This document shows positions 14,710 to 46,512 of a DNA stretch of 64,000 nt, in pieces. The position numbers were made by a program, and so were the translations under genes. A model generated the notes under the pieces. That model was given only the letters and a program-made list of their open reading frames with translations. It had not been told where the DNA came from and ran no database searches. Every line of letters starts with the position of its first letter. Within the stretch, counting starts at the first letter, position 1. The stretch is from a phage: the sequence record NC_101842.1; one strand, 5' to 3'.

Positions 14710-14994
14710 ATGGTAGTAGAGCCAACAAAAACATTTACATCCATGACCATTCCTGTTATTATGCAGGTGGAGTGTGTTCAGGTATCTCAAGTGTGGCCTG
14801 GCACCAAAATCCCAACAGGGCCTGATTTCTTTCAGGTTGGGAAAGTGTACAATGTCTGGAAGGCACCAGATTGTTACCCTTTCATTAAAGATGACCGTGG
14901 GATGCTGTGGTATCTTGGAAATGACTTGACACTGCACCTTGGGAATGCTATTATTGCAGTATTCAGACTTAACAAGAAGGAGACCGATCAATGA
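14710..14994 (+). CDS. hypothetical protein (tandem paralog family A, member 1)
   Basis: Internal ATG with AGAGGAG RBS; shares KDDRGMLWYLGND-type block with the next two ORFs. Confidence 0.55.
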   Translation: MVVEPTKTFTSMTIPVIMQVECVQVSQVWPGTKIPTGPDFFQVGKVYNVWKAPDCYPFIKDDRGMLWYLGNDLTLHLGNAIIAVFRLNKKETDQ

Positions 14995-15218
14995 CGACTT
15001 TGGTTAAAGCTACCTTTGTAGAAGAAAAGATGACAGACCTGTCATTCTTTAAAGAAGGAAAGACCTACGAGGTTTATTACGATAAAGCTCGTGCAAACAA
15101 AATGATTAAAGACGAGGAAGGGGTTGCCTGGTATATCTCTCACCTGGCAAACGGTGAGTATCATATCTACGGAACCACTTTGCTTGCCAAGTTTGTAGTT
15201 GTTGAAGAGGACCTATGA
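14991..15218 (+). CDS. hypothetical protein (paralog family A, member 2)
   Basis: ATGA overlap; block KDEEGVAWYISHLANG. Confidence 0.6.
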   Translation: MTTLVKATFVEEKMTDLSFFKEGKTYEVYYDKARANKMIKDEEGVAWYISHLANGEYHIYGTTLLAKFVVVEEDL

Positions 15219-15409
15219 AAGTAAAGTATCTTGCTGAAGGTATGAATAGGTATTTTACCCTTGGGGAAGAATATTGGCCCTTTACAAACAACGGTGATGT
15301 CTACGTGAAAGATAATTTCGGCACGCCGTGGTTTCTGCACTCTAATGGGCTGGGATACTCCATTTACTGCGGTGCAGTGAACAACACAACTCTTGCAGAG
15401 TTCGTTTAG
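15215..15409 (+). CDS. hypothetical protein (paralog family A, member 3)
   Basis: ATGA overlap; block KDNFGTPWFLHSNGLG. Confidence 0.6.
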   Translation: MKVKYLAEGMNRYFTLGEEYWPFTNNGDVYVKDNFGTPWFLHSNGLGYSIYCGAVNNTTLAEFV

Positions 15410-15419
15410 AGGAGGTAGG

Positions 15420-15791
15420 ATGTTAGTAAAAGGTACCCACACAGTCAAACAACGTATTGAAGTTGAGATTGATGATTGTGAGCTGAAGCATATTTTACGG
15501 TCATGCTCCAACGTTTTGCTCCTTAGTATTCTTCAGGAGCGAGCGGAGAACGAGTTCTTAAATGCATTGGCAGGCCGTCCCGGTGACTTCTGTGTGCGTA
15601 AGCGTGGTGACAACAAGTCATGGTTGTGGGAAATCGATGCCGACTGGGATTACCACAAAAATGAAGGTATAGATGAGCCTATTCGTGAACTGACTGACAA
15701 AGAGATTCAGATGTACAATGAAGTTTGTCATTGGGCAACACGCCAACAAATTTACCTAGACCCTGTGTGGCTGATTGAAAATAGCCATTGA
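15420..15791 (+). CDS. hypothetical protein
   Basis: ATG at 15420 after GAGGAGG RBS; track ORF 15393-15791 trimmed. Confidence 0.55.
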   Translation: MLVKGTHTVKQRIEVEIDDCELKHILRSCSNVLLLSILQERAENEFLNALAGRPGDFCVRKRGDNKSWLWEIDADWDYHKNEGIDEPIRELTDKEIQMYNEVCHWATRQQIYLDPVWLIENSH

Positions 15792-15816
15792 CAAGAAGTA
15801 AGATTAGATATAAGAT
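15788..15816 (+). promoter_or_regulatory. sigma70-like promoter
   Basis: TTGACA, 17-nt spacer, TAAGAT, upstream of the ORF at 15868. Confidence 0.45.
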
Positions 15817-15867
15817 GCTTCGCACAAACAGAGTGTTGATTTTTAAATAACTAAGGAGACTGCTAAG

Positions 15868-16122
15868 ATGAAAATTACTTTGAAGTCAGAATGCGTTGCA
15901 AATGACCGAGCTTTTAAAGATTGCACAGTCGGTGCAATTTATGAAGCAGAGTTTTGTGAGAACCCTCTGGTAAAAGCCCTCCTGGAAGAAGGGGCCCCTT
16001 TATCACAAGAAGAGATCGATGAGCTGGAAAACTCAGCACAGTGCCTTACCTTTAAAGATGATGAAGGAGACTCTGTATGGTGCACTGTTAATGAAGTAGT
16101 TTTTGTAAAACCTGAACATTAA
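15868..16122 (+). CDS. hypothetical protein (paralog family B, member 1)
   Basis: AAGGAG RBS; blocks DRAFKDCTVGAIYEAE and KDDEGDSVWCTV shared with the next ORF. Confidence 0.65.
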   Translation: MKITLKSECVANDRAFKDCTVGAIYEAEFCENPLVKALLEEGAPLSQEEIDELENSAQCLTFKDDEGDSVWCTVNEVVFVKPEH

Positions 16123-16125
16123 TAC

Positions 16126-16154
16126 TTGACAACAGTGATGGGGCCTAATATAAT
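16126..16154 (+). promoter_or_regulatory. sigma70 consensus promoter
   Basis: TTGACA, 17-nt spacer, TATAAT; lies inside the 5' extension of track ORF 16126-16446. Confidence 0.55.
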
Positions 16155-16185
16155 GGCCCTATCAAAACGAAAGGGGACCACAGCA

Positions 16186-16446
16186 ATGACCAAACAATAC
16201 CAACGAATTAAAGCCAAGGTTAAGCCAGACTATCTGGAGAAAGACTCTGCTTTTCGGGACTGCACAGCCGACAAAGTTTACACAGGGGCTGTCCTGTTGA
16301 ACGATAAACTTGAAGTAGATGTGCTGGGTAAAGAGGCCGTTATCGAGGATGACAACGGTGACTGTGTTTTCTGCACCACACGGGAGCTAGAAGTCTTAGA
16401 ATACTTCGGTGAAATCTTCAACTCTTTAGACGACGAGGAAGCGTGA
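16186..16446 (+). CDS. hypothetical protein (paralog family B, member 2)
   Basis: ATG downstream of the promoter; blocks DSAFRDCTADKVYTGA and EDDNGDCVFCTT. Confidence 0.6.
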   Translation: MTKQYQRIKAKVKPDYLEKDSAFRDCTADKVYTGAVLLNDKLEVDVLGKEAVIEDDNGDCVFCTTRELEVLEYFGEIFNSLDDEEA

Positions 16447-16835
16447 TGAAAAATATTTGGGATATTGATATCTTTGAAGCCTCTAAGCTTGACGGTGCTG
16501 ATGGAGTTATTATGGTGTCTGATGGCAAGGCAACACTAACTTCCGGAGATATCATCTATGCCTTGGACGAGCTGGCGCTTCTGAAATCTACCGGTAACAC
16601 TTTAGAGGAGCGTCTTCAAGGCTTCGCCTTCAAAGAAGGTACAAATACCGCCATGATGTGCACCACACGGACAGTTCAGGTTGGTAACGGTGTCTATATG
16701 ATCATTGCGGTGTGTCATAAATTCAGCAACGTCAATAAAGATGATGCTGACGCTGTCAACGATGTGGTTGTTCTCTTCGTAGGTGACGCTATGGCAGACC
16801 TGATGAATGCAGGAGAAGCGGCAAATGAAGACTGA
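16443..16835 (+). CDS. hypothetical protein
   Basis: ATGA overlap with upstream stop. Confidence 0.6.
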   Translation: MMKNIWDIDIFEASKLDGADGVIMVSDGKATLTSGDIIYALDELALLKSTGNTLEERLQGFAFKEGTNTAMMCTTRTVQVGNGVYMIIAVCHKFSNVNKDDADAVNDVVVLFVGDAMADLMNAGEAANED

Positions 16836-17127
16836 AAACATTACCCCAGCAGGGTTCTTAAAAGTATACCGTGAACTGCTATATACTACAGAGGACAGTG
16901 TTCTAGAGTATCCAGAATATCTTTTGCTGTATAAGTATCTGCAGGAGGCTGGTGAAAATCTGCCAGTTAGTGCAGAAGGTGGTCCGAACTGGATATACAG
17001 CGCATGGAGAAAGGTTGACATTCTCCCAGATCCAGGTAAAGATATGGTAGTTTGGCAGCTTATCAACAACATTGGGATTCCAATCTTTGATGAAGCTGTT
17101 AAAATCTATTTTGAACTTGACGATTAA
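16825..17127 (+). CDS. hypothetical protein
   Basis: ATG at 16825 after AGGAG; track ORF 16807-17127 trimmed. Confidence 0.5.
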   Translation: MKTENITPAGFLKVYRELLYTTEDSVLEYPEYLLLYKYLQEAGENLPVSAEGGPNWIYSAWRKVDILPDPGKDMVVWQLINNIGIPIFDEAVKIYFELDD

Positions 17128-17144
17128 TATCAGGAGACCTTAAG

Positions 17145-17390
17145 ATGACTGAAGTAGTTGCTCGCGCAGGACAGAAAGTACGTTGTGTTGAAGTAGGTTT
17201 TGGTGGCAAAGGGTGTCAAAACTTGACTCAAGGTAAGGAATACGCTGTTATTTCTGGTGGTGGCGACGAAAGTATTGTGTTCGAGGGCCACATCCTGGAT
17301 GCTGAAAACTTTGAAATCTTTGACGACGATGGGGATCCGATCACCTGCCTGCTGGACGGGAATTGGGGAACTTTCGAAGTGATTGGCTAA
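17145..17390 (+). CDS. hypothetical protein (DDDGD motif, related to paralog families A/B)
   Basis: CAGGAGA RBS; block FDDDGDPITCLLDGNWG. Confidence 0.6.
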   Translation: MTEVVARAGQKVRCVEVGFGGKGCQNLTQGKEYAVISGGGDESIVFEGHILDAENFEIFDDDGDPITCLLDGNWGTFEVIG

Positions 17391-17473
17391 CAAATACCTA
17401 TTGTAATTTGCAGAAGGGGATGCTAAAATAGTGTCTCCTTCTATGTTGTTCAAATAAAATCGGAGATTCCATA

Positions 17474-17839
17474 ATGGAACAAATGAACGATCAAGCGTCG
17501 GTTGCGATGAACGAGCAAGAACAACCTCAAGAATTTTTCTTAGGGTTAAGTAAAGATCAAGTGTCTCTTCTGCTAGTGCTTTCTTCTTTCATGGGAAGAC
17601 TTCAGGAGCTCACACAACAACCAGAGGCTGAACAATTATTTCAAGCTCTGCGTGAAGAAGAAAAATATCGTCGTTTGGACTATGCCTTAGGTTGGGTAGC
17701 TCAACAACGAGATATGCTGATGGCCCTCTCTGGGACCACAAGTTTTGCAATGGGGCTGTTGGCTCAAGTTCAGGACAAATTAATTCAAGCAGGGTTTGCA
17801 CACACGGCAAACACTAACGAAGAACAAGGAGACAAATAA
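17474..17839 (+). CDS. hypothetical protein
   Basis: GGAGA RBS; Q/E-rich. Confidence 0.6.
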   Translation: MEQMNDQASVAMNEQEQPQEFFLGLSKDQVSLLLVLSSFMGRLQELTQQPEAEQLFQALREEEKYRRLDYALGWVAQQRDMLMALSGTTSFAMGLLAQVQDKLIQAGFAHTANTNEEQGDK

Positions 17840-19065
17840 TGAGCGTTATTCAACAATTCGCTAACCCGATGAATCCGCGTGAAACTGTTTTACTGGCTCA
17901 CGGCATGATTAAACGTGTCAGCATCAAGCCTATCAAAGGTGCTGATCCTACAACAGGTATTAAAACCACTGTGTGGCAAGGTAAGAAAATTGAATCCAGC
18001 CACACCATCTCTTTACTGATTTCTGAACTGGATTCCTCTGATAACCTGCTTCAAAGTGGTGAAGAAGTTTGGATCAGCATGGGTGATAAGCTGCTTAAAC
18101 CTGGTCATCAAGACTCTGTCTCTGTTAAAATTGATGACAAGTGGGAAACCGTAACGCCGGGATGGATCGTAAATATCCCTTTGAAGGCAAACGAGCATAA
18201 CGGTAAGACCTATTACAAAGGCTCACTGGCTAAGATGGTCAAGCTGGGTGCAGGAGAGGCTCCAGCAGCGACTCAGCAGCAAAAACAGCAACAAGGTGCA
18301 CAATCACAAGGCCAGAAGCAGAAACCTCAGCAGAATGCCAATCAGGACGTTTTACGCATCTATGGCGATGTGACTCAGATTGTTGGCAACGTGGTTACTG
18401 TTAATGACCACAAGATTGGCGAAGGTGCTATGGTTGTAACTGATGAGCAGCTTAAAGACCTGGTGGTAGGTGGTCGTGTTGCAGCCATTGTTGACAAAGA
18501 CACCGGAAACATTATCAGTGGTTTCAAAGCCTATCCCCCTAAGGCAGAGAACGGCACTCAAGGCTCCGGTGGCAAGCGTAAATCCTCTTACGACCCTATC
18601 GGTGTGGAAACGGGGCATAGCATCAATGCGTTGCAGATCATCCTGGATCGCGGGTTTAAGGTAGACGACCCACTGGGCGTGGCTAAAACACTGCACGTAG
18701 TCACCATTGAGCTTAAGAAAGAGTATGCTCAAGCCACCAACCGAACTGAAGATGAAGTAGGTGCCAGTGTCGGTAATGCGGTGTTGAACGCTTGTCGCCG
18801 TATTGACAAGAAAACGAAAGTTGATGATTTTGCAGCGGCAATTACTGCAGAAGCAAAAGATGTCTTGACTAATCTGGCTGAACCGTTGTACGATTGGATC
18901 AAGAACGGTGCTGGGTCAACTGACTATCAAGAACCCCAGGCTGCCAAACAGGAAGCAGCTCCACAGCAAAACACTGTAGACGCTCCTCCTGTAAATGATG
19001 AGGAAGATGACCCAATGGATCAGAATCCAGCACAGTATACCTTTGATGATGACATCCCTTTTTAA
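17839..19065 (+). CDS. putative ssDNA-binding protein with SSB-like acidic C-terminal tip
   Basis: Ends ...FDDDIPF, identical in the last residues to E. coli SSB; Q-rich low-complexity linker; sits in the replication module; AAGGAGA RBS. Confidence 0.55.
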   Translation: MSVIQQFANPMNPRETVLLAHGMIKRVSIKPIKGADPTTGIKTTVWQGKKIESSHTISLLISELDSSDNLLQSGEEVWISMGDKLLKPGHQDSVSVKIDDKWETVTPGWIVNIPLKANEHNGKTYYKGSLAKMVKLGAGEAPAATQQQKQQQGAQSQGQKQKPQQNANQDVLRIYGDVTQIVGNVVTVNDHKIGEGAMVVTDEQLKDLVVGGRVAAIVDKDTGNIISGFKAYPPKAENGTQGSGGKRKSSYDPIGVETGHSINALQIILDRGFKVDDPLGVAKTLHVVTIELKKEYAQATNRTEDEVGASVGNAVLNACRRIDKKTKVDDFAAAITAEAKDVLTNLAEPLYDWIKNGAGSTDYQEPQAAKQEAAPQQNTVDAPPVNDEEDDPMDQNPAQYTFDDDIPF

Positions 19066-19080
19066 CATCTAGTTAACATA

Positions 19081-19110
19081 GCCCTGCCCGAAAGGGTGGG
19101 GCATTTTTGT
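19081..19110 (+). terminator. rho-independent terminator (repeated element, copy 2)
   Basis: Same CCCTGCCC-GAAA-GGGTGGGG hairpin followed by CATTTTTG. Confidence 0.6.
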
Positions 19111-19127
19111 ATAAGGAGATCTGAAAA

Positions 19128-19544
19128 ATGACATTAGAAGATATCATTGTTAAGCCTGAGAACTATGACCAATACAACCTGTCAACTCAATCTGTAGACC
19201 TTGGATGCGCCACGGTCAGTGCGTGGCTGGTTAACGGAAAAGAGCTGGATAAATGCTTAGAAGCTCACATGTCTATTAACAAGTTTCTGGATGAAAATAC
19301 TCACTGGCTTGAGGGTGCAGGCGTATATGCTTCATGGTTGGATAGTATGGGATTCGACTACCAATCTGAAGAGGGGTGGTGGAGCTATTTAGCTATCTGT
19401 CCAGAGACGCTACAATGCTTCATGAAATATTCTGAAGATTTGGAGTACCGGGCGGTGGTTGATAGTGCTATTGCCCGTTATAGCCGTAAACCTTTTTCCC
19501 ACGACATTAAAACTGTGGAAGAATTTGTTGAAGTTTTCTGTTGA
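19128..19544 (+). CDS. hypothetical protein
   Basis: AAGGAGA RBS. Confidence 0.6.
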   Translation: MTLEDIIVKPENYDQYNLSTQSVDLGCATVSAWLVNGKELDKCLEAHMSINKFLDENTHWLEGAGVYASWLDSMGFDYQSEEGWWSYLAICPETLQCFMKYSEDLEYRAVVDSAIARYSRKPFSHDIKTVEEFVEVFC

Positions 19545-19640
19545 CACAGATTGAAAGGTGTGCAATTATAACTTCATAGAACGGGAGGACGTGATGAACG
19601 AAGAAAACTGGGATGTATAACTAACAGGAGGCCACTGCCC

Positions 19641-19838
19641 ATGATTTATCGAATCCGTGTAAGAGAAGATGCACCAGGCTGTTACTTTGACTGGCGTGGG
19701 TGGTGGTTTATCCACCCAATGGATGGACTCACAGATAGAATGCTGGATGCTGCCCTTTACACAGATACCGACATAGAATATAATCTCTATCTGAAGGACG
19801 GTATAGATAACGGCCTGTTTGAAGCAATTCCTGTGTAA
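19641..19838 (+). CDS. hypothetical protein
   Basis: CAGGAGG RBS. Confidence 0.55.
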   Translation: MIYRIRVREDAPGCYFDWRGWWFIHPMDGLTDRMLDAALYTDTDIEYNLYLKDGIDNGLFEAIPV

Positions 19839-19906
19839 GAGACTGTGATAGCTATGTTTTATGATCTTCCTGTAGCGCCACCACCTGTTGAACCAGGAGA
19901 ACTAAG

Positions 19907-20332
19907 ATGATCTATGAAATGCCAAAACTGATTCGTGACGATGCCCAAAACGCTCACACCATTATTATGGGCAAACGCATGGATATTATTTGTCATAAAG
20001 ATTTCTGGGAAGGAAGTTACTTCACAGAGTATTTTGGTAAACTGGACAATGGTCTGCTGATCCAGTTCTACACCGATGCGGAAAACAACATTCCCTGGGA
20101 GTTCGAAACTGAAGATGTCTATAAACTTTTCACCTTCCTCGGTATTAAGGTTAAGGCCAAGTTTGAAGAAGGTGAGTGCGACGATTGTGGATTTTATGAG
20201 GTAACAGATTTCTACCTTCCTAGCGGTAAGAACCTTTACTATGAAAGCCACTTCGGTAACTCCAATATGCCACAGTGCTGGACTGAGTTTTTTGAAATTG
20301 CGGAAGAGGAGCTGGCTTACCGTGATTATTGA
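19907..20332 (+). CDS. hypothetical protein
   Basis: CAGGAGA RBS; directly upstream of, and overlapping, the macro-domain gene. Confidence 0.6.
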   Translation: MIYEMPKLIRDDAQNAHTIIMGKRMDIICHKDFWEGSYFTEYFGKLDNGLLIQFYTDAENNIPWEFETEDVYKLFTFLGIKVKAKFEEGECDDCGFYEVTDFYLPSGKNLYYESHFGNSNMPQCWTEFFEIAEEELAYRDY

Positions 20333-20780
20333 TACTGTAGAGGGAGATTTAATCTCCCTTTTTAAGAGCGGTGCTGGTCACCTGATCCACGGTTGTAACT
20401 GCTTCCACACAATGGGCAAGGGTATAGCAAAACAGATTGCCCGTGAGTTTCCTCAAGCACTGTCAGCCGACAAAGAGACTAGATACGGTTGCCTAAGTAA
20501 ACTGGGTGCGTTCTCCCGATGGGAGCACTTATCTCCGATAGGTATTGTCTACGGAATCAATCTATATACCCAGTTCTACCCAGGACCTAATGCTGAGTAT
20601 TTCTCAATCCTGAAAGGCTTTGAGCTAGTCAATGAAGTATTCAGCGGATCGACTTTACCATTCTACATCCCTAAGATCGGGTGCGGCATAGGCGGTTTGA
20701 AGTGGGAACACGTAGAGGACGTTATTAACCTTGCCACTTTCGACATAGATATTGTCGTGGTGGAGTACAAAAAGTGTTGA
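20322..20780 (+). CDS. macro-domain protein, TARG1/OARD1-like (putative ADP-ribose hydrolase)
   Basis: Motif HLIHGCNCFHTMGKGIAKQIAREF resembles the macro-domain fingerprint of the TARG1/DarG-type branch; probable GTG start at ~20322 overlapping upstream stop. Confidence 0.7.
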   Translation: MIIDTVEGDLISLFKSGAGHLIHGCNCFHTMGKGIAKQIAREFPQALSADKETRYGCLSKLGAFSRWEHLSPIGIVYGINLYTQFYPGPNAEYFSILKGFELVNEVFSGSTLPFYIPKIGCGIGGLKWEHVEDVINLATFDIDIVVVEYKKC

Positions 20781-21031
20781 CGACCATCTTCTGAGGTGAT
20801 ATAGTTTCCACGACAACTAAGAGAGGAGAGCACTGTGGAGACTAAAATCTTAATTCTTGCTGTGGTAGATACAACCGAAGGAGCTATATTCGAATCTGCA
20901 GGAGGGTATTTCTACCTACCATACGGAAAAAGAACTTCCGAGCCAAGTAAAGATTCAATCCTCAAAGTGTTCCCGTGTGCTTTCTGGCTGGAGATTTTGG
21001 TATAAGATTGCAGAGGATTTGGGAGAGAATT

Positions 21032-21226
21032 ATGAGAAACAAGAAAGAACTTTACTCCGGTGAGTGGATCAACGATCAACAGGTGGGAGAGGTAACCTGC
21101 TTCCGATGTTTTACCAGGTACAATCTTAAAACTGCACCAAAAAGTGTTCCAAAGACTGACGGTTACTACATAAAAGAACCTCATTGCCCAAAATGTAAAT
21201 GCCGATTGTACTGGAGCAATCTGTAA
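21032..21226 (+). CDS. small zinc-ribbon protein
   Basis: CxxC...CxxC (CFRC...CPKC); GGGAGAGAA RBS; track ORF 20975-21226 trimmed. Confidence 0.5.
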   Translation: MRNKKELYSGEWINDQQVGEVTCFRCFTRYNLKTAPKSVPKTDGYYIKEPHCPKCKCRLYWSNL

Positions 21227-21230
21227 GAGG

Positions 21231-21258
21231 TTGACATCTGAAAACTGCAGTGTATAAT
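21231..21258 (+). promoter_or_regulatory. sigma70 consensus promoter
   Basis: TTGACA, 16-nt spacer, TATAAT, upstream of the ORF at 21290. Confidence 0.55.
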
Positions 21259-21289
21259 ATACGCATAAACTAACAGAGGGTGATGTATT

Positions 21290-21481
21290 ATGGTAATTTT
21301 TAACCGGGATGGTATCATAGTTAGACAGCACCCGTTCCTTGAATACTATCAAATTGAGCAATGGTGCTACGGGGATTGCAGTCACTCCTATGGGCAAAGT
21401 TGGGGATATCGTACAGTTTTTGAATCCACAGACCTTGACAAAGTAAAACAGAAAGTTTTAGAACTTCTTAACAACAAGTGA
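21290..21481 (+). CDS. hypothetical protein
   Basis: AGAGGG RBS downstream of consensus promoter. Confidence 0.55.
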   Translation: MVIFNRDGIIVRQHPFLEYYQIEQWCYGDCSHSYGQSWGYRTVFESTDLDKVKQKVLELLNNK

Positions 21482-21491
21482 GTATCGTGCC

Positions 21492-21824
21492 ATGGTAACA
21501 TTGGAAAGACGTAAAGCTATTGCCGCCACACTGGCAGACATCTTTTGGGATTGTAATTTAAAATCTACCCGAAATTGTGGTGCATCTGTAGATGTATTAT
21601 TCCCACGGCCTACTATTGTTGCAATGGGCAACCTGCTCGATGTGGTATATGGAGCATGGGACAAGGAAGGTGGATTCTATATCTGGCAACCTGACTACGG
21701 GACTTGGAAAGAGGTTAGTGGTTCTTCGGACTTCACTCCTGCAGTGGCTAAAATGGATGGCTGGAAAATCTATGTCGGTAACGACATGGAACTGAAAGGC
21801 GAAATTGTTTACTGGTTACCTTAA
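21492..21824 (+). CDS. hypothetical protein
   Basis: ORF in same-strand array; weak RBS. Confidence 0.5.
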   Translation: MVTLERRKAIAATLADIFWDCNLKSTRNCGASVDVLFPRPTIVAMGNLLDVVYGAWDKEGGFYIWQPDYGTWKEVSGSSDFTPAVAKMDGWKIYVGNDMELKGEIVYWLP

Positions 21825-21845
21825 GAAAGTCCAGGAGATAAAGTT

Positions 21846-22091
21846 ATGAACAAAGGGTGGACATTTGTAGACGGCGTTAAAAACATGCCTCTAGGAAAGT
21901 ATATTGTAGCCATGGCAGATGAGAATGGCAAGGTTGATTTCGGAGTTTGCGAGGTTGTTCTTGCAGGATCTGGTGACTATGCTCACAAAACTGGGATAAT
22001 TAACGGTCATTTCTACTTTGATTACAACCCTGTTGTGGCGTATATGGCTATGCCAGAGTTCGAGCTCCCAAAGGAAGGTGCAGATGTTTAA
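21846..22091 (+). CDS. hypothetical protein
   Basis: CAGGAGA RBS. Confidence 0.6.
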   Translation: MNKGWTFVDGVKNMPLGKYIVAMADENGKVDFGVCEVVLAGSGDYAHKTGIINGHFYFDYNPVVAYMAMPEFELPKEGADV

Positions 22092-39426: not shown

Positions 39427-39687
39427 TTACAGCACCTCTTCGTCAACTACTTCATAAAAATGGCCTGGGATTGCAATAGCGTTCTCACCTTCACCTACAA
39501 ACACAGTTCCGTCAAGAATCAACATCATAAGAATTTCTGTAATATCCTCTTCCGGAACGTTGCCAAAACCTTTAATCAGCTCGTAGGTTGGAATATTTAC
39601 CTCTAAGATGTCACCATCTTTAGAACGGAAATCAACACCGTCCTGAATCTCTGCCGTTTCAAGGTTTTTCAATTTAATCTTCATCAA
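39427..39687 (-). CDS. hypothetical protein (MKIK-type N-terminus)
   Basis: ORF in array. Confidence 0.6.
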   Translation of the reverse strand: MMKIKLKNLETAEIQDGVDFRSKDGDILEVNIPTYELIKGFGNVPEEDITEILMMLILDGTVFVGEGENAIAIPGHFYEVVDEEVL

Positions 39688-39763
39688 TCGGTCTCCTGTC
39701 TTGTTAAGATGAAGGTATTATTTCACACAGGGTTGGCGTTGTCAACACCTGTGTGCAAGAAAA

Positions 39764-40159
39764 TTACTGAAACAGTGCGGATAAATTACCTTCTGGTGGG
39801 AACTTATCTGCCAAAAACGGTGTTAGCACAGTAGCCTTCTGAAGATCTGGGGTCCACTCGTTGTTCAGAACATCCCAGTAGTACGCAATGTTGCTGTGTG
39901 GGTGCCGCATTACGAACTTTTTCCCTTCGTAGTCGTCTGAAACCTCTACAGAAGAAATAACAACAGAATCTTCAAGGGTTTCTTCATAGAAAGATCCCCC
40001 TTCAAATTTCCAACGAGATGCAAGAGCCCCTGCCTTGAACGCTGCAGATAACGGACTGTCGGCAAGAACATACATTTCTTGCACTCTGTCGCTGCGATCT
40101 TTGCTTCTTACGTTGTATACAGTATCTGAGCTATACTCAACACGGTATAGGCTTACCAT
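39764..40159 (-). CDS. hypothetical protein (paralog of 41966-42364)
   Basis: Shared block HPHSNIAYYWDVLNNEWTP vs HPDSRVKHYWNARTKTWTP. Confidence 0.6.
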   Translation of the reverse strand: MVSLYRVEYSSDTVYNVRSKDRSDRVQEMYVLADSPLSAAFKAGALASRWKFEGGSFYEETLEDSVVISSVEVSDDYEGKKFVMRHPHSNIAYYWDVLNNEWTPDLQKATVLTPFLADKFPPEGNLSALFQ

Positions 40160-40491
40160 TACCGCACCTCCTCAATAACTTCCACATCTGAACCTACCAC
40201 AAATGCAAAAGGACAGGTTTCATGAAAGACATCTGGATCGCCGCCAAGCTTGCTAACAATCTCTCCACCACTAATAAACACAAGCTCACCGATATTCATC
40301 AGATTGCTGAAATAGTACCCATAATGATTAAAGAATGCAGCAGGGTCAGGTAGACTGGTAGCCTCAAGCACTACATCGGTTGAGGTTACTTTCTTATCAT
40401 AACCTCTCGCCTTTTGAGATGCAAGATCTGCAGAATCCTCAGGAGACCGGAGATGCACAGGAATTGTTTCACCAATAAAGCGTACTTTCAT
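40159..40491 (-). CDS. hypothetical protein
   Basis: Start at internal ATG (MKVRFIGE); track ORF trimmed. Confidence 0.55.
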   Translation of the reverse strand: MKVRFIGETIPVHLRSPEDSADLASQKARGYDKKVTSTDVVLEATSLPDPAAFFNHYGYYFSNLMNIGELVFISGGEIVSKLGGDPDVFHETCPFAFVVGSDVEVIEEVR

Positions 40492-40495
40492 ATTA

Positions 40496-40759
40496 TCACC
40501 CAACAACCATAGCTTCAAAAGGAGTCATGAACGAATAAACGGCATCATCATCTGCTTCAGGGAATGCTCCCAAAGACTTCATATCTGAACCCTTGACAAA
40601 TACAAGGTTTTGATCAAAGGCTTCTTGGGGGTCAATCCGATACATATTTCGTAGAATATCGCTTACCTCCTCATCAAGAGGTGAGTATGCTGTGCACGTT
40701 TTTCCGATCAAGCTTTGAGAATCAGGGTATCCACCTGAAGTTTTAAAATAAACAATCAT
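40496..40759 (-). CDS. hypothetical protein
   Basis: ORF in array. Confidence 0.55.
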   Translation of the reverse strand: MIVYFKTSGGYPDSQSLIGKTCTAYSPLDEEVSDILRNMYRIDPQEAFDQNLVFVKGSDMKSLGAFPEADDDAVYSFMTPFEAMVVG

Positions 40760-40850
40760 ATAGTATCACCTCTGGTAAGAGATTGGGATTCCTTTCCCAC
40801 AAATAATTACAAATCTTCCTTATCGAGGAAGTATGCTAATCCAAGCAGGA

Positions 40851-41120
40851 TTATTCCTCTACAATCTCATACACATCAGGAGTTACAATCAATTCTTCTC
40901 CGTTACCCGGTGCAACAAACACCACCAAACCTTCAGGTGTGTGCTTTTTAGCCATCTCGATAACATCTTCTCGCAGAGCTGGCTCCATCAGATCAAAACC
41001 TTCACCCAGGGCATCACGAACCACCTTCATATAGTCCACTGGTTGTGCTTCAACAATCATGCCTTCAACCAGTCCACAGTTTTTGTCTGCCAGCTCAGTT
41101 TTGAATAATTTAATTTTCAT
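40851..41120 (-). CDS. hypothetical protein (MKIK-type N-terminus)
   Basis: ORF in array. Confidence 0.6.
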   Translation of the reverse strand: MKIKLFKTELADKNCGLVEGMIVEAQPVDYMKVVRDALGEGFDLMEPALREDVIEMAKKHTPEGLVVFVAPGNGEELIVTPDVYEIVEE

Positions 41121-41150
41121 TTAGAGGTCTCCTCAATTATTTGATATTAA

Positions 41151-41252
41151 TAGCCGTAACCTAACACATTAACTACAACTGCGATTGCAAACATAATTTC
41201 AAAGCATGCAATCTCTACATTTGGGACTAATTTCTTAATCACACCCATTGTA
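41151..41252 (-). CDS. small hydrophobic peptide (33 aa)
   Basis: Not in ORF track; MGVIKKLVPNVEIACFEIMFAIAVVVNVLGYGY; GAGG RBS. Confidence 0.4.
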
Positions 41253-41257
41253 GCACC

Positions 41258-41575
41258 TCATTCTCCAAAGTCAATCTTTACTTTGCCTTTCCCCTTACCT
41301 TTCTTTCCACCGCATTTAGCCAGCTGACGTGCTGCAACATCTACCATACGGTCAGTTGCCTCGTAAGCATCACTACCTTTAGCCTTGGCAATAACTTCTT
41401 TTCCAGAATTGTCAAAAATGAACGCCATAACTTCCTGGTGATCATTTTCAACTTTTACACTCACACGTGCATAGTTGGCAGAGGGGTGCAAACGCTCCAG
41501 TTTAGACATTTTGTTGGAAATGAAAGACACCATACCTTCAGTGATTTCTACGTTGCCAGTGATTTCAATTTGCAT
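41258..41575 (-). CDS. hpf: ribosome hibernation promoting factor / RaiA-family protein
   Basis: Aligns along its length to E. coli HPF as I recall it: MQIEITGNVEITEG...KLE...VKVE...AKAKGSDAYEATDRMVDVAARQLAK; own promoter and 5' hairpin. Confidence 0.8.
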   Translation of the reverse strand: MQIEITGNVEITEGMVSFISNKMSKLERLHPSANYARVSVKVENDHQEVMAFIFDNSGKEVIAKAKGSDAYEATDRMVDVAARQLAKCGGKKGKGKGKVKIDFGE

Positions 41576-41594
41576 AACGTGTTCCTTTTAAAGA

Positions 41595-41651
41595 AGAGGG
41601 AACCAAACCCTCTTTGAAAACAATGATACTAAATCTGAAGCGTTGTGTCAA
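41595..41651 (-). promoter_or_regulatory. sigma70-like promoter plus 5'-UTR hairpin for hpf
   Basis: On - strand: TTGACA (41651-41646), 17 nt, TATCAT (41628-41623); hairpin AGAGGG-loop-CCCTCT at ~41595-41613. Confidence 0.55.
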
Positions 41652-41657
41652 CAGTTT

Positions 41658-41948
41658 TTACAGATTGTTGTCGATAGTTTTTAAAATATCCACAGCAAGA
41701 TCTGCCATTTTTCGAACATACTCTGCAAACTCAACAGGATCCTTGATCAAAGAATTCACAGGGTCGTACCCTAGAGCGTTCAAAATGGCTGCAGCATCTA
41801 CAACCTTCTCATCATTTGCGAAGATCTCTCCATCAAACTTGTAGGTCCATTTTGAGTCAATCTTGGCAGGGAAGGATTGGTCAACGCTTGTTACACCATC
41901 CTTTTTAAACGCTCCGGTGTTATCAGTGTCCAGAACTAAATCCATCAT
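41658..41948 (-). CDS. hypothetical protein
   Basis: ORF in array. Confidence 0.6.
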   Translation of the reverse strand: MMDLVLDTDNTGAFKKDGVTSVDQSFPAKIDSKWTYKFDGEIFANDEKVVDAAAILNALGYDPVNSLIKDPVEFAEYVRKMADLAVDILKTIDNNL

Positions 41949-41965
41949 GTTAGTACCCCACTGTT

Positions 41966-42364
41966 TCAGTTTAGCTTTTCTTCAACAACCCCATAGCTCG
42001 GGACAGAGTCAAGAGCTTTCTGGTTTAAAAGTGGTGTAGCAGAATCTGCAAACGGTGTCCAAGTTTTTGTTCTGGCATTCCAGTAATGCTTCACTCTGGA
42101 ATCTGGATGCACTATAACAAAAACTTTTTCACTTGTCAACACATTAATTTCTTCTACACCCTTGCTGATAATTTCTCCGTCATAGCCCCCAGTCTGGTAT
42201 CCTTCGTACCAGGTTCTTGCATAGGCATAGCCAGCTTGCCAGCATGCAGCCTCCTCCGAGGTGGAGACTACGTAGAAGTCTTTCTCAAATTCTGGAATAC
42301 GCCCTTGCTTTATGCTCCAAGCTCCGCGAATTTTCATTGTAACTTTGAACAGTTTATTTTTCAC
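41966..42364 (-). CDS. hypothetical protein (paralog of 39764-40159)
   Basis: Shared blocks with 39764-40159. Confidence 0.6.
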   Translation of the reverse strand: MKNKLFKVTMKIRGAWSIKQGRIPEFEKDFYVVSTSEEAACWQAGYAYARTWYEGYQTGGYDGEIISKGVEEINVLTSEKVFVIVHPDSRVKHYWNARTKTWTPFADSATPLLNQKALDSVPSYGVVEEKLN

Positions 42365-42376
42365 AACGGTTACCCA

Positions 42377-42631
42377 TCACAGCTCTACAATATCTGCATC
42401 TGACCCTACCCCAAAGGCATAATAGGACTCTTCCCCGAAATAATATTCAGGTGCACCAGCGGTGATCAGGTCTGCTCCTAAGATAAACACTACGTTGTGG
42501 CCTACATAACTGTGATGTTGCCGAACAGGATCATCCCACGGCAACCCTTCAAAGTATACCGCAGGAACGACCTTTCCCTTCAGGAAGGATTGTCCCAAGT
42601 AGACGTTAGAATCAAGAATTTTAACCTTCAT
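42377..42631 (-). CDS. hypothetical protein (MKVK paralog family, member 1)
   Basis: MKVKILDS...GADLITAGA. Confidence 0.6.
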   Translation of the reverse strand: MKVKILDSNVYLGQSFLKGKVVPAVYFEGLPWDDPVRQHHSYVGHNVVFILGADLITAGAPEYYFGEESYYAFGVGSDADIVEL

Positions 42632-42848
42632 GATTGTCCTCCACTATCTCTACATCCTCACCTAGGGCAAAGTTGTAGGTCCACTGACTGTCAAAGCATT
42701 CCTGAGATGCACCAGCGGCAATAAGATCTGCCCCTTTTATTTTTAAAAGGTCGGGGTAATCTTCGTTAGGGACAGCAGTAAACACTTTCCCCACTAAGGG
42801 CTCCTGACCAATATAGAAGCTTGAATCTAAAACTTTAACTTTCATCAA
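42621..42848 (-). CDS. hypothetical protein (MKVK paralog family, member 2)
   Basis: MKVKVLDS...GADLIAAGA; tandem with member 1. Confidence 0.6.
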   Translation of the reverse strand: MMKVKVLDSSFYIGQEPLVGKVFTAVPNEDYPDLLKIKGADLIAAGASQECFDSQWTYNFALGEDVEIVEDNHEG

Positions 42849-43132
42849 CGGTCTCCATCAGGTGGTTGTGGGACGTAAACACTGTTACGAATATCGTCCG
42901 CAGTATAGTAATAAGTGTCTCCAACCCTATCTCTGGCTGCAATGTACTCTGCTATACCAATAAGTGCCATTGATTTGGTGGCGTATCTTCCCCACTCGTT
43001 AGCTCCCCAGTAGAATTTAGACCAGTAAGGAATAAGACCGAACAAATATACCTTTTGACGAACTTCCCAGTAAGTGCCTTTTCCGACAAGTTTAAACTCG
43101 ACTTCACTACTGTTAATCTTTTTCATTATCAA
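42845..43132 (-). CDS. hypothetical protein
   Basis: ATGA overlap. Confidence 0.6.
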   Translation of the reverse strand: MIMKKINSSEVEFKLVGKGTYWEVRQKVYLFGLIPYWSKFYWGANEWGRYATKSMALIGIAEYIAARDRVGDTYYYTADDIRNSVYVPQPPDGDR

Positions 43133-43425
43133 TCTCCCTCTACCGTGGTAGGATTGTCAGTAAGAAATTGAGCATTGGCTGGAGGCACGCCTGACATTTT
43201 CCACACAACCATAAGTTTGTAACCAGGCACTCTATTAAGTGCAGATCGAGTAGAGTTTGTGCACGTATACTTTCGCTTTCCAAACCCGTTCTCCATCATA
43301 ATCCAGTACCCAGTATCTTTGTCACCAGGTATCGGTAGACCACCTTCATCAACCCACTGAATGGACCACGGCACGATGGCTACAGCTTTATATTTAAACT
43401 TTTTAAACCACTCAAAAAGTTTCAT
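43129..43425 (-). CDS. hypothetical protein
   Basis: ORF in array. Confidence 0.6.
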   Translation of the reverse strand: MKLFEWFKKFKYKAVAIVPWSIQWVDEGGLPIPGDKDTGYWIMMENGFGKRKYTCTNSTRSALNRVPGYKLMVVWKMSGVPPANAQFLTDNPTTVEGD

Positions 43426-43432
43426 AATTCAG

Positions 43433-43522
43433 CCTCGCATAGACATAATCACTATAAACAGGCAAACAATGAATCCGAATGCCACGCCACCCATAAACGT
43501 TAATATTGATGCAATCATAGTC
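43433..43522 (-). CDS. possible small hydrophobic peptide (~29 aa)
   Basis: Not in ORF track; MIASILTFMGGVAFGFIVCLFIVIMSMRG; coordinates approximate. Confidence 0.3.
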
Positions 43523-43706
43523 AATCAGCCTCGCTTGGCAACTCTTCTACCTTAACATGCCGAAAAGTGTTACCGTAATGGTTGATCCATGACATCAGCT
43601 CGCTTTCTTGCTCTTCCTCTGGGATGAACTCTCGAATGCTGACAAGTTTTAAGAAAACCCAATCACAATCTGCACCCATTCTACCAGACAGGCAATAGTG
43701 CTTCAT
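43521..43706 (-). CDS. hypothetical protein
   Basis: ORF in array. Confidence 0.5.
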   Translation of the reverse strand: MKHYCLSGRMGADCDWVFLKLVSIREFIPEEEQESELMSWINHYGNTFRHVKVEELPSEAD

Positions 43707-43724
43707 AAAACCCTCCCGCCTGGT

Positions 43725-43919
43725 TTAGAATATTGCTTCTTCCATTGCGCCTGAGAGCAACAAAGAGGTGATCTGGCTAACATTCATCTCAGACTCTACT
43801 TCCTCCCCTTTGAAAGGTTCGCGGCAGAATAGGACTGTTTCAGGACTTTTACTTCGAACAATATAATACAAATCATTCAATGTGTTGTAGTAATAAGTGT
43901 TAAAACGTAAGTTTTTCAT
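43725..43919 (-). CDS. hypothetical protein
   Basis: ORF in array. Confidence 0.5.
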   Translation of the reverse strand: MKNLRFNTYYYNTLNDLYYIVRSKSPETVLFCREPFKGEEVESEMNVSQITSLLLSGAMEEAIF

Positions 43920-44203
43920 TTTCTAGTCCTCTTCTTAGATTTTTGGGGAGAAACGCTTTCTGCAATACGAGACAGACGTTCTTCTGAAGCCTTACCTACT
44001 CCAGGTTTTTTGAGTGGATTATCTTTATGACCACAATCCAACTGGATATTGGATACCTCTCCAACTTTGTAAGTCAATTCTAGCAAAAGGTTGTCGTCCT
44101 TGTCAAATGTTTTTACGATAAATTTTTTATCGTTCTCCTGAACTTCATATCTGGTACCTGCAGTATACAGCATGGTGCCATCAGCATAGGATATCCAAAT
44201 CAT
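43916..44203 (-). CDS. hypothetical protein
   Basis: ATGA overlap. Confidence 0.6.
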   Translation of the reverse strand: MIWISYADGTMLYTAGTRYEVQENDKKFIVKTFDKDDNLLLELTYKVGEVSNIQLDCGHKDNPLKKPGVGKASEERLSRIAESVSPQKSKKRTRK

Positions 44204-44547
44204 TGAGCCTCCTTTTGCTGCAACAGCATTAACTCTTTGTTAGAAATCTTTACTGCTGTTTTTATTGTTCCATCTTCACGAAACCACGACCAGAACTCTA
44301 CAGTGTCACCACTATCAAGTAAAGCATGCCCATGGTAAAAATCTTTGTCCTTAGACAGTTTCTCATCTATATCTGCATCAACACATTCGTGATCCATAGC
44401 ATTTTGCCTGAACGCATCGGTTATGCCAATGCACGCCTTGCTCTCAAGACTGGTATATCCGATATCTTTTAATTCAGTTTCCCAAGTCCAGTACCCTATA
44501 AAAGCTAAAACAGCTACCCACAGTAATAACGTTTTAATCTTTGGCAT
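44200..44547 (-). CDS. membrane-anchored or secreted hypothetical protein
   Basis: N-terminal hydrophobic segment LLLWVAVLAFIGYWTW. Confidence 0.6.
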   Translation of the reverse strand: MPKIKTLLLWVAVLAFIGYWTWETELKDIGYTSLESKACIGITDAFRQNAMDHECVDADIDEKLSKDKDFYHGHALLDSGDTVEFWSWFREDGTIKTAVKISNKELMLLQQKEAQ

Positions 44548-44609
44548 TCTCTCTACCTCTTTCTTAGTTTATTTCACTATGGCACATCCTTTGTGCCATA
44601 TCTCAACTA

Positions 44610-45080
44610 CTATTTAAATAGTAGTTCAAAATAGTGCAAAATTAACAGAAGTTGAACTACACCTAGTGCAACGGCGAGTATGTTAATCTTAGAATCGAAA
44701 AACTTCTTAACTTTTACTCTAAAAGGTTCCTTAATGTCCTTTACGATCCTATCTATAGATGACCTCATATCTCTGATTACCATCCTGAACATTAAAGACG
44801 GATGCTCCCCCATCTCTGTAACGGAATCGAAAACATACTCTCTTCGGTCATAAGGGCCGCCAGCTCTGCGTATTAACCTCTCCACAGAGACCTCGAACGT
44901 CACACCTGTAACGTAATCATCTATAACAAGTCGTGACGGGTCTTTACCTTTACTATCAAGAGGTATCAAAGTTATCTTTCCAGATTTTGTTAAAATTTCC
45001 CCTTTTTCAAGCAAGGTGTACCAATGCTCTCTGCCAAGACTGTTGAGGCACGTTTTTACATATTTAACAAACATCGTCAC
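44610..45080 (-). CDS. hypothetical protein with C-terminal TM helix
   Basis: C-terminal ILAVALGVVQLLLILHYF. Confidence 0.6.
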   Translation of the reverse strand: MTMFVKYVKTCLNSLGREHWYTLLEKGEILTKSGKITLIPLDSKGKDPSRLVIDDYVTGVTFEVSVERLIRRAGGPYDRREYVFDSVTEMGEHPSLMFRMVIRDMRSSIDRIVKDIKEPFRVKVKKFFDSKINILAVALGVVQLLLILHYFELLFK

Positions 45081-45262
45081 CCCTCATCGCACGTCTGATA
45101 TAACCACTCTATAAAATCTTGATACCATTCGCCCTCTGAGCGCTCCGTAGGCCAATAATCTTCACCCTCTCGTGCATTAAAATCTGAGTATTCAACTTTC
45201 CACTCCTTTACCAGCTCGTGGAGAAGGTTTTCAGCCTGCTCTAAAGATTTATTTTTTACCAT
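45077..45262 (-). CDS. hypothetical protein
   Basis: ATG (MVKNK) after AAGGAG; track ORF 45077-45280 trimmed. Confidence 0.5.
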   Translation of the reverse strand: MVKNKSLEQAENLLHELVKEWKVEYSDFNAREGEDYWPTERSEGEWYQDFIEWLYQTCDEG

Positions 45263-45354
45263 TGCTGTCTCCTTTTTCAAGATAGTTATACATCAGAACT
45301 GCACCACCTAAGATGGCTACCAGTAACAATACCCCAGATAGCATCTCAATAAAC
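45247..45354 (-). CDS. possible small hydrophobic peptide (~35 aa)
   Basis: Not in ORF track; MFIEMLSGVLLLVAILGGAVLMYNYLEK...; overlaps downstream start; coordinates approximate. Confidence 0.3.
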
Positions 45355-45481
45355 ATGGCTTGAAACACTGGAAGGCCTCCCTAAATTAACGCACCATTTT
45401 AAATACATGCTCTTTTCCCATAAAGGTGCCTGGCTAAGATCTGCGTAGAACGCAATCTCTTTAAGAACAGTATAAACAGTT

Positions 45482-45718
45482 TTAGGTGCGGTCTCCATCC
45501 CTACCCTCCTTTTTCTCCTTACGGATATTCTTGTAGTAATCAACCAGGCACATTATCACGATGAAGATAACAACAGGCCAAAAAGGTGCAGCAGTGATGA
45601 TGGTGATAAAATCATCAAACTTCACCCTTCGTCTGGACACGATGCATACACCTGTCAAGAATACCGCTGTTATAACGGACATTACCAGGTAACCTATTAG
45701 CACAACATTTATACTCAT
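45482..45718 (-). CDS. membrane protein (two TM helices)
   Basis: VVLIGYLVMSVITAVFLTGVCIV and FWPVVIFIVIMCLV. Confidence 0.55.
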   Translation of the reverse strand: MSINVVLIGYLVMSVITAVFLTGVCIVSRRRVKFDDFITIITAAPFWPVVIFIVIMCLVDYYKNIRKEKKEGRDGDRT

Positions 45719-45748
45719 TGGTCCTCCCTTTGTAGGTTAAATTGTATA

Positions 45749-46282
45749 CTACAAATGGCAACTGAGGGTGTCAAGAAAATTATCCCGTTCTTTCTCAGAG
45801 TTTTCATGGGTGTAGCTGAAAAACATATCGAGAATAACCTTATTGATATATTCCAGCTCCTCTGTGTTCAGATGCTTAGCAGGATCTACAATGACATCCC
45901 AAATATCATACAGACCACACTCATGATACCCATAACGCCACTCAATTGTCAAGCTGAGCGGCAAATCTTTACCGTCACAAACAACCTTCCATCTACATAT
46001 GTTGGTATCTGGTCGTATCTGTGCACGGTACACCTGTACAAAATCCAATTTGAATTTGAGGTACTCGTCATACAATTTAAGCACAAAGCTCTCGATTTGT
46101 GGAGACACTTTTGCAGCAAACTGTGCGTATTTGTACTTGCACTGGATGATCTTTCTGCGTTTTGCAGTTAAATTTTTTGCCGCCAGTTGTTCTTCAGTGT
46201 ATCTCCACCTACGATCAACAAACGCAACAGGGTCTTTGTCCCCATAGAGGTCTTCCCAGTTAATCAGAAGCATACCTGTCAC
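45749..46282 (-). CDS. hypothetical protein
   Basis: ORF in array. Confidence 0.6.
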   Translation of the reverse strand: MTGMLLINWEDLYGDKDPVAFVDRRWRYTEEQLAAKNLTAKRRKIIQCKYKYAQFAAKVSPQIESFVLKLYDEYLKFKLDFVQVYRAQIRPDTNICRWKVVCDGKDLPLSLTIEWRYGYHECGLYDIWDVIVDPAKHLNTEELEYINKVILDMFFSYTHENSEKERDNFLDTLSCHL

Positions 46283-46512
46283 TCCTCCACAACTTCAAGG
46301 CCTTTACCGCCTCGCTCTGGCAGATTACTTAAAGATAGGTAATACATATAATCAGGAGAGATCCTGCCAGACTCTGCACCTGCAGCTAGTAAATCCTTCC
46401 CTTTAACCAGGACAACATTCTCGTTTGCAGATAGCTGTTTTGCTTCCACAATTTTACCAACACAGTCAACCAAGGAAGGGTACCCTAAATCTGTAAGAAA
46501 TTTAACTTTCAT
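46279..46512 (-). CDS. hypothetical protein (MKVK paralog family, member 3)
   Basis: MKVKFLTD...GKDLLAAGA. Confidence 0.6.
   Translation of the reverse strand: MKVKFLTDLGYPSLVDCVGKIVEAKQLSANENVVLVKGKDLLAAGAESGRISPDYMYYLSLSNLPERGGKGLEVVEE

Follow-up and report, generated by a model that had tools for sequence, protein, structure and literature searches.

The stretch of phage DNA analysed here (record NC_101842.1, 64,000 nucleotides; hereafter the window) belongs to a Vequintavirus (rV5-like) phage of Escherichia coli and encodes, in two arms of small genes, four families of paralogous proteins and a probable fifth. A megablast search with positions 14000-24000 and 39000-47500 matched >110 related genomes, the nearest being phages nomine and nomo (99.7%) and CarlMeissner/Bas48 (99.9%), and the gene annotation of the window was carried over from CarlMeissner. 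Genes on the plus strand extend from the DNA polymerase gene (11883-14660) to ~33.3 kb and those on the minus strand fill the window from ~35.8 kb onward, with ~2.4 kb without coding sequence separating the two arms. An initial annotation had listed several of the paralogs, and the eight pairs that it named were aligned by Smith-Waterman (BLOSUM62, gap 11/1) and compared with 5,000 shuffles each, giving a z-score and a Gumbel P value. The same alignment with shuffle controls was applied all-against-all to 85 window proteins (3,570 pairs), and ortholog alignments of 44 genes were compared all-against-all by profile-profile HHalign. The named pairs were the top scorers in the unbiased comparison, and the core pairs (z 10-24) were matched by 0/5,000 shuffles. 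Orthologs, given below by their names in rV5 (gp) and in phage Bas54/MaxBurger (bas54), were sampled from GenBank records; scans of IMG/VR had given just 1-2 loci. We note that ~16-18 GenBank records labelled 'UNVERIFIED Campylobacter phage' (MG0656xx; L014, L015) are near-identical Vequintavirus genomes with 94-100% protein identity over the paralog region, and their Campylobacter host label looks doubtful.

The MKVK family is encoded on the minus strand. The trio in the initial list comprises 42377-42631 (84 amino acids; gp136; bas54_0158, without a transposon-sequencing phenotype), 42621-42845 (74 amino acids; gp135; bas54_0159; the protein that was modelled) and 46279-46512 (77 amino acids; gp122; bas54_0166; nearest to the lambdoid-prophage homolog P0031 described below), and its kinship is borne out by pairwise scores of z = 24.0 (P = 2e-14; 42377/42621), 13.2 (P = 3e-8; 42621/46279) and 6.8 (P = 1e-4; 42377/46279), by full-length matches to phrog_5009 (E = 3.8e-32, 3.1e-38 and 1.4e-35, in gene order) and by HHalign values of 99, 97 and 81%. 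A hidden Markov model (HMM) of the trio recruits two further minus-strand genes in the first round of hmmsearch, 40496-40759 (87 amino acids; gp142; bas54_0152; E = 7e-7) and 40159-40491 (110 amino acids; gp143; bas54_0151; E = 1e-5), and converges at five members. HHalign joins 40159-40491 to 42377-42631 (91.5%) and 40496-40759 to 46279-46512 (90%). PHROGs puts these two MKVK-type genes in clusters of their own (phrog_13661 and phrog_13920); 40496-40759 matches phrog_5009 weakly (E = 1.2e-4), and 40159-40491 has no phrog_5009 match, though it is matched by the HMM built from the window. Both genes, absent from the initial list, are thus members of the MKVK family, which numbers five.

The pair family consists of P1 (39764-40159, minus strand; 131 amino acids; gp144; bas54_0150), the final gene of a three-gene operon, and P2 (41966-42364, minus strand; 132 amino acids from GTG 42364; gp137; bas54_0157). 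The two were rightly paired at the outset, with z = 15.9 (P = 8e-10), full-length matches of both to phrog_7379 (E = 2.1e-66 and 4.1e-69) and an HHalign value of 100%. BASEL annotations (Bas48, Bas54) start P2 at ATG 42337 (123 amino acids). The longer form chosen in the initial annotation is the correct one, because it includes an N-terminal strand, KLFKVT, that can be aligned with LYRVEY of P1 and with distant homologs, and the rV5 annotation likewise starts at GTG 42364. P1 and P2 also extend, at the C terminus, into a region marked by the invariant signature H-P-x-S ... W ... W-T-P ... A-T.

Families A and B are encoded on the plus strand. Family A contains 14710-14994 (94 amino acids; gp219; bas54_0077; phrog_12922) and 14991-15218 (75 amino acids; gp218; bas54_0078), whose start overlaps the preceding stop by 4 nucleotides; the two are linked with z = 10.5 (P = 8e-7) and an HHalign value of 75%. 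The third gene proposed for this family, 15215-15409 (64 amino acids; gp217; bas54_0079), is less firmly attached: it aligns with 14991-15218 over nearly the full length (z = 5.4, reached in 3/5,000 shuffles; P = 5e-4) and shares with it a weak phrog_3249 match, whereas its comparison with 14710-14994 gives z = 2.5 (P = 0.02) with a KD-x-G-x-W motif as the sole common feature, and against the Family A profile it reaches 4.7% in HHalign and E = 0.02 in hmmsearch, as the best non-member match. It is a probable member, joined only through the bridging gene 14991-15218. Family B comprises 15868-16122 (84 amino acids; gp215; bas54_0081) and 16153-16446 (gp214; bas54_0082) and held up as proposed (z = 10.9, P = 5e-7; HHalign 93%). 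PHROG cross-matches are seen for Families A and B (12544/11936 for 15868-16122), while PHROGs keeps Families A, B and group II (see below) in separate single-ortholog clusters. The second Family B gene starts at 16153 in the rV5 and BASEL annotations (97 amino acids) and at 16186 in the initial one (86 amino acids), and the MKVK gene 42621 has alternative starts at 42845 and 42848; the initial coordinates were otherwise right. A link of Families A and B to gene 17145-17390 through a 'KDD-x-G' motif was considered and rejected as a mere motif-level resemblance. HHalign between Family A and either Family B or 17145-17390 is <=5%, and relatedness between these families is not demonstrable.

Group II is a further, more loosely linked and probable family on the minus strand, missed in the initial annotation, in which sequence comparisons form a chain (z 4.6-7.9; HHalign 89, 86, 64 and 33%). 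It includes 38747-39076 (109 amino acids; bas54_0147), linked to 39076-39426 with an HHalign value of 85.7%; 39076-39426 itself (116 amino acids, net charge -21, isoelectric point (pI) 4.05; bas54_0148), linked to 39427-39684 (z = 7.9; HHalign 89%); 39427-39684 (85 amino acids; bas54_0149), linked to 40851-41120 (63.8%); and 40851-41120 (89 amino acids; bas54_0153). The weakest link is 38460-38747 (95 amino acids; bas54_0146), with z = 6.4 against 39076-39426 and HHalign values of 33% and 24% to others. A single superfamily of MKVK and group II proteins was considered, since both begin with MK(V/I)K and have a G-x-v-v-x-A strand and YEIVEE at the C terminus; family-level HHalign gives just 10.7% over 28 columns, which leaves it unproven. 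A likeness of 39427-39684 to the N6-adenine methyltransferase 47507-48040 (z = 7.4; 31% identity over 49 residues) was also dropped, its single-comparison E = 1e-4 not being significant among 3,570 pairs.

The duplications that gave rise to these families are ancient, because synonymous sites are saturated between paralogs (proportion of synonymous differences, pS, 0.74-0.93; nucleotide identity 39-56%). The initial annotation had read the paralogs as a diversifying expansion. This is not what orthologs from related phages show: Nei-Gojobori ratios of nonsynonymous to synonymous change (dN/dS) against the most divergent members of the genus are 0.03-0.27 for every family gene, the same range as in neighbouring genes, with plentiful synonymous changes in each member and gene-wide values nowhere near 1. 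P1 and P2, at 0.04-0.06, belong to the most constrained genes; the ratio is 0.03-0.04 for 14710-14994 and 0.03-0.10 for 15868-16122. Variability is above average in 42377-42631 and in 14991-15218, which varies more than any other ortholog in the A/B arm (79-100% amino acid identity) and still has a dN/dS of 0.12-0.27. All family genes were found in every genus genome fetched, and 11 sampled loci show no change in copy number. By tblastn, the two MKVK places are occupied in essentially all of 117 records and the two pair-family places in 117/118 GenBank Vequintavirus records, with one genome apparently lacking P2. Low dN/dS, constant copy number and saturated pS together mark the duplicates as old, fixed and conserved one by one, not as an expansion still under way.

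Copy-number differences are seen only at the depth of two uncultured relatives, both with synteny kept. One (L017) has >=4 MKVK genes, five group II genes and one P1-like gene (P0125), and the other (L020) has one MKVK gene, four group II genes and one P2-like gene (P0126), compared with five MKVK and two pair-family genes in the window. That both a P1-like and a P2-like form occur at this distance is a further sign of ancient origin. The block 40496-40759/40159-40491/P1 is syntenic in L017 at 40-58% identity. In L020, on a 138.7-kb metagenomic contig, a TnpB/OrfB_IS605 (Cas12f-like) gene is inserted in the homologous small-gene arm (L020:10532-11644). The sole repeat at the DNA level among the paralogs is a 31-nucleotide direct repeat (81% identity) in the tandem MKVK pair, encoding GADLI(T/A)AGA at 42449-42479 and again 256 bp away at 42705-42735. 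It is the crossover site of natural hybrids: in >=3 independent assemblies the tandem pair is replaced by one 70-amino-acid gene with its junction exactly at the common CCGCTGGTGCA, and the hybrids P0014 and P0018 (L021:1501-1713 and L022:1501-1713) join the N-terminal 47 residues of 42621-42845 to the C-terminal 23 of 42377-42631, corresponding to a 256-bp deletion at an 11-nucleotide microhomology. The families are thus old and grow and shrink slowly by unequal recombination, with each copy under purifying selection.

Outside this phage group, the families are scarce. Profile searches of 5.8 billion protein clusters matched 37 clusters for MKVK, 6 for the pair and 81 for Families A and B plus 17145, derived almost all from contigs of ~135-140 kb, and a HMMER pass over 1.84 billion representatives added just two genuine distant homologs of the pair family. 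No significant match to a family HMM was found in a 49-kb stretch of the genome of Klebsiella phage KB57, from another Vequintavirinae genus. The families are almost confined to the genus Vequintavirus. P0031, a 75-amino-acid MKVK homolog (L002/L003:8001-8228), lies in a lambdoid E. coli prophage in the interval between the Q antiterminator and holin genes, an accessory ('moron') slot with ~ten small genes without assigned function, and is present in 13/5,426 complete E. coli genomes. Its occurrence there is evidence that virulent rV5-like phages and temperate phages have exchanged genes. Family proteins gave nothing at or near threshold against Pfam, NCBIfam, PADLOC or PDB sequences. The paralogy is implicit in PHROGs, where phrog_5009 and phrog_7379, both without assigned function, group the copies together, and it is not described in the rV5 genome paper, which mentions neither paralogs nor duplications (PMC3606486).

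Family members are acidic proteins, with a median pI of 4.66 versus 5.58 for other window proteins (P = 0.006). The model of 42621-42845 has five strands and a short helix and superposes over 49-58 residues at 2.6-3.1 Å on SH3-like small beta-barrels (Spt5/NusG KOW domains, PsaE and eukaryotic SH3 domains), and MKVK proteins are predicted to adopt this fold. The best structural matches are Spt5 KOW domains, PsaE and ribosomal L24/eL6-type barrels. No MKVK member has any Pfam match at E<=1, whether to KOW or to ribosomal proteins. P1, modelled by AlphaFold2 with a predicted local distance difference test score of 79, has no matches among viral models beyond its own paralog and one protein of phage 4MG, and the pair family is predicted to have a small alpha/beta fold without close relative. 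Its likeness to eL20/L18a-LX and PurS-like alpha/beta domains is weak and partial, reflects a simple topology and comes without sequence signal; P1 and P2 differ from these domains by adding the C-terminal signature region.

The arrangement of the minus-strand arm suggests transcription by the host. Between 35.5 and 48.2 kb, 36 sigma-70-like sites were observed against 24.8 expected, and the coding strand carries every one of the 12 best, which match at 10 or 11 of 12 positions. The rV5 annotation includes promoters P144, P150 and P220; the P144 and P150 sites are intergenic and count among these 12. The P150 site (39717-39745, minus strand; annotated in NC_011041) is TTGACA-17-AATAAT with an extended -10 element, just downstream of P1. 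The P144 site (41623-41651, minus strand), also of sigma-70 type, heads the transcript of an HPF/RaiA ribosome hibernation factor gene (41258-41575, minus strand; Pfam Ribosomal_S30AE in relatives), which sits mid-cluster behind it; the predicted transcript continues through 40851-41120, 40496-40759 and 40159-40491 to P1. Junctions between the last three genes are overlapping or of 4 nucleotides, and the stop of 40159-40491 overlaps the start of P1 (TAATG). On the plus strand, a perfect sigma-70 consensus, TTGACA-17-TATAAT, lies at 16126-16154 and overlaps the start codon annotated for the second Family B gene (16153); for a transcript made from it, ATG 16186 would be the only usable start. 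Elsewhere in the minus-strand arm, a block of ~7 small genes (43129-45074) that includes an ortholog of rV5 gp128, a 'virion structural protein', is missing from Bas54/MaxBurger and present in the other sampled genomes, and gene 43725-43919 within these coordinates has two allelic forms (~68% versus 97-100% identity).

Between the arms, the ~2.4 kb without annotated gene (33283-35766) has an AT-rich core (GC ~0.35 at 33.4-34.4 kb), copies of ATAGTTGCC(T/C)TG in both orientations, a perfect 20-nucleotide direct repeat (33944/34175) and a perfect 18-nucleotide inverted repeat (33977/34111). It has no Rfam match, and no tRNA was found in the entire window. The rV5 paper labels this stretch 'non-coding' (PMC3606486), and transposon insertions in its Bas54 counterpart were not tolerated (10.1101/2025.11.20.689424). 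A long-read study identified Bas54 92,785-95,298, corresponding to 33.3-35.7 kb of the window, as the terminal-repeat region with the physical ends of the genome (10.1101/2025.04.16.649189). Because the non-coding stretch corresponds to that region, both paralog arms flank the genome termini.

Phenotypes of near-identical orthologs are available from HIDEN-SEQ, a preprint on transposon sequencing of Bas54/MaxBurger (10.1101/2025.11.20.689424), whose orthologs of the window family genes are 95-100% identical (98-100% for bas54_0150-0152 and 0157). In E. coli K-12, 'Non-essential' is the score of P1, P2, the MKVK trio, Families A and B and all group II genes but 40851-41120 (bas54_0153), which together with bas54_0151 and 0152 is 'Intermediate'; the HPF/RaiA ortholog is also non-essential in these data. 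In a uropathogenic isolate, the same preprint (Extended Data Table 8) records zero reads in bas54_0150 (P1; log2 fold change -6.77, q = 0), bas54_0151 (40159-40491; -6.17, q = 0) and bas54_0152 (40496-40759; -7.16, q = 0), depletion of bas54_0157 (P2; -2.14, q = 0) and a non-significant change in bas54_0153 (40851-41120; -2.8); the remaining family genes are not affected. The clinical data set can be read as that of strain CFE311, because the CFE311-specific genes bas54_0063 and bas54_0140 are depleted in it. The latter is validated by knockout as required against DS-28, a predicted defence of E. coli CFE311 (10.1101/2025.11.20.689424). Its window ortholog (36675-36974, minus strand; 99 amino acids, 99% identical) shares with the family genes the arm, the size class, non-essentiality in K-12 and depletion in the same clinical-isolate data, but lies outside all paralog families, with no significant match in the all-against-all or HHalign comparisons.

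With moderate confidence, we interpret the five families as old tandem-duplicate accessory genes, placed in the terminal arms and transcribed early by host RNA polymerase, whose specialised copies bind host targets or barriers and of which the pair-family module is host-specific. This interpretation builds on the paralogy, age, constraint, fold class and narrow distribution established above, and on the non-essentiality and conditional requirement of near-identical orthologs in the preprint data. The products would be small (64-132 amino acids), mostly acidic, single-domain proteins encoded toward the physical ends of the genome, probably expressed early from sigma-70 promoters and dispensable on laboratory E. 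coli. Since each duplicate is kept under purifying selection, the copies would do different jobs rather than supply dosage or a pool of fast-evolving variants. Small stable domains such as the predicted MKVK barrel and the alpha/beta fold of the pair would most likely bind host macromolecules or strain-specific barriers stoichiometrically. The operon 40496-40759/40159-40491/39764-40159, together with P2, would be needed for efficient infection of particular uropathogenic E. coli, most probably neutralising a strain-specific defence or compensating for a strain-specific host factor. The best-supported part is that infection of a particular natural host requires at least the pair family, with its MKVK-type operon partners possibly needed as well. 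A counter-defence role for family genes is the most likely form of this requirement, because a validated anti-defence gene lies ~3 kb away, because, as the preprint argues, it is mainly defence content that sets E. coli strains apart (10.1101/2025.11.20.689424), and because a prophage carries an MKVK homolog in a moron slot. The more specific proposal that the operon and P2 constitute a counter-defence or host-range module not recognised before, directed at a barrier of uropathogenic E. coli, with each paralog specialised on a host barrier of its own and the arms acting as a library of small-domain inhibitors, is tentative and somewhat short of even confidence. More speculatively, the KOW-like and eL20-like domains predicted around the phage hibernation factor may target the translation apparatus. 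The suggestion in the initial annotation that the paralogs serve in host interaction or anti-defence is therefore plausible, with experimental backing for P1, P2 and the two MKVK-type genes; the MKVK trio and the Families A and B that it had named are without phenotype in the two hosts.

Several observations weigh against this interpretation. In neither host is a phenotype seen for the MKVK trio, for Families A and B or for four of the five group II genes, and the conditional requirement comes from one host and one supplementary table. In that table, the sheets Data S6/S7 ('K-12 vs CFE303' and 'K-12 vs CFE311') carry identical numbers, and the sheet headed CFE303 has a command line naming a CFE311 file; the identity of the host is deduced and a single comparison is usable. 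The genes that the authors name as anti-DS-28 are bas54_0063 and bas54_0140 only, the defences cloned from that strain are DS-28 and Gao_Tmn only, and the family genes are not discussed in the text of the preprint (10.1101/2025.11.20.689424). A literature search found no Vequintavirus transcriptome, so that early expression is deduced from promoters. Finally, the three genes with zero reads follow one another in one operon, and polarity on P1 could account for the missing insertions in the two MKVK-type genes.

If that polarity is the whole explanation, only P1, and P2 more weakly, would be host-specific, the MKVK-type requirement would be an artefact, and the MKVK, A, B and group II genes would await selective conditions yet to be sampled. 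The gene order 40851, 40496, 40159, P1 with its tight junctions fits, as does the graded depletion, from -2.8 (0153, not significant) to complete loss (0152, 0151 and 0150), with 0149 past the promoter unaffected; depletion of the independent paralog P2 likewise points at the pair family. Insertions in 0151-0153 are mildly costly in K-12 even though P1 is freely disruptable there (saturation 0.69-0.73 versus 1.0), which argues that these genes have some effect of their own, and conservation of the three-gene block in L017 is as expected of a functional module. We regard the purely polar explanation as a genuine contender that is nevertheless rather unlikely. The 'Intermediate' scores of 0151-0153 in K-12 are also what would be expected if the family proteins were general takeover modulators docking on RNA polymerase or the ribosome alongside the phage hibernation factor, whose gene sits between family members, and the weak fold resemblance of MKVK proteins to Spt5 KOW domains, PsaE and L24/eL6-type barrels points the same way. 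However, K-12 should need such factors, yet in that host P1, P2 and most other members can be dispensed with entirely, the strong requirement is specific to a host strain, and the KOW or ribosomal-protein signal in Pfam is missing; general takeover thus appears unlikely by a clear measure.

Two further explanations concern the existence and upkeep of the families themselves. Redundant or neutral leftovers of duplication, or diversifying arms-race copies, would be in line with the lack of phenotype of most members in two hosts, the collapse of the tandem MKVK pair to one hybrid in >=3 assemblies, the genome apparently without P2 and the raised variability of 14991-15218 and 42377-42631. Neither is easily reconciled with dN/dS of 0.03-0.27 amid many synonymous changes in each member, never near 1 gene-wide, or with retention of the copies in ~117/118 genomes and in a relative of 40-69% identity, and we consider both very improbable. 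That the similarities stem from chance or composition, with no families at all, has next to nothing in its favour: the low scores of 14710/15215 (z = 2.5), of 15215-15409 against the Family A profile (4.7%) and of the group II links to 38460-38747 fit, while core pairs reach z 10-24 with 0/5,000 shuffles, common PHROGs and HHalign values of 93-100%. Chance similarity is ruled out for 14710/14991 and for the MKVK, pair and B families.

The preferred interpretation, host-directed accessory families in the terminal arms, has parallels in the terminal-redundancy host-takeover module of SPO1, the pre-early region of T5 and the small early genes of T4, which likewise consist of dozens of small genes of little-known function near the termini. 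Those arms have strong host-type promoters and are mostly dispensable in the laboratory host, with some genes needed on particular hosts. The window differs in that its arms are transcribed toward the terminal-repeat region from both sides, and no characterised takeover protein is homologous to its families in sequence or, demonstrably, in structure.

Phages of the rV5 type are therapy candidates with a broad host range, and some two thirds of their genes lack a known function. Sorting ~17 small genes into five families leaves fewer independent unknowns, and the constraint on every copy means that paralogy alone is no sign of diversifying selection, since these families are not fast-evolving. 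The pair family and its two MKVK-type operon partners offer a compact experimental target, with a host-specific phenotype already in public data. If the target of P1 and P2 is a defence system, they would represent a new inhibitor family with a new fold, and would help to explain the success or failure of these phages on clinical isolates.

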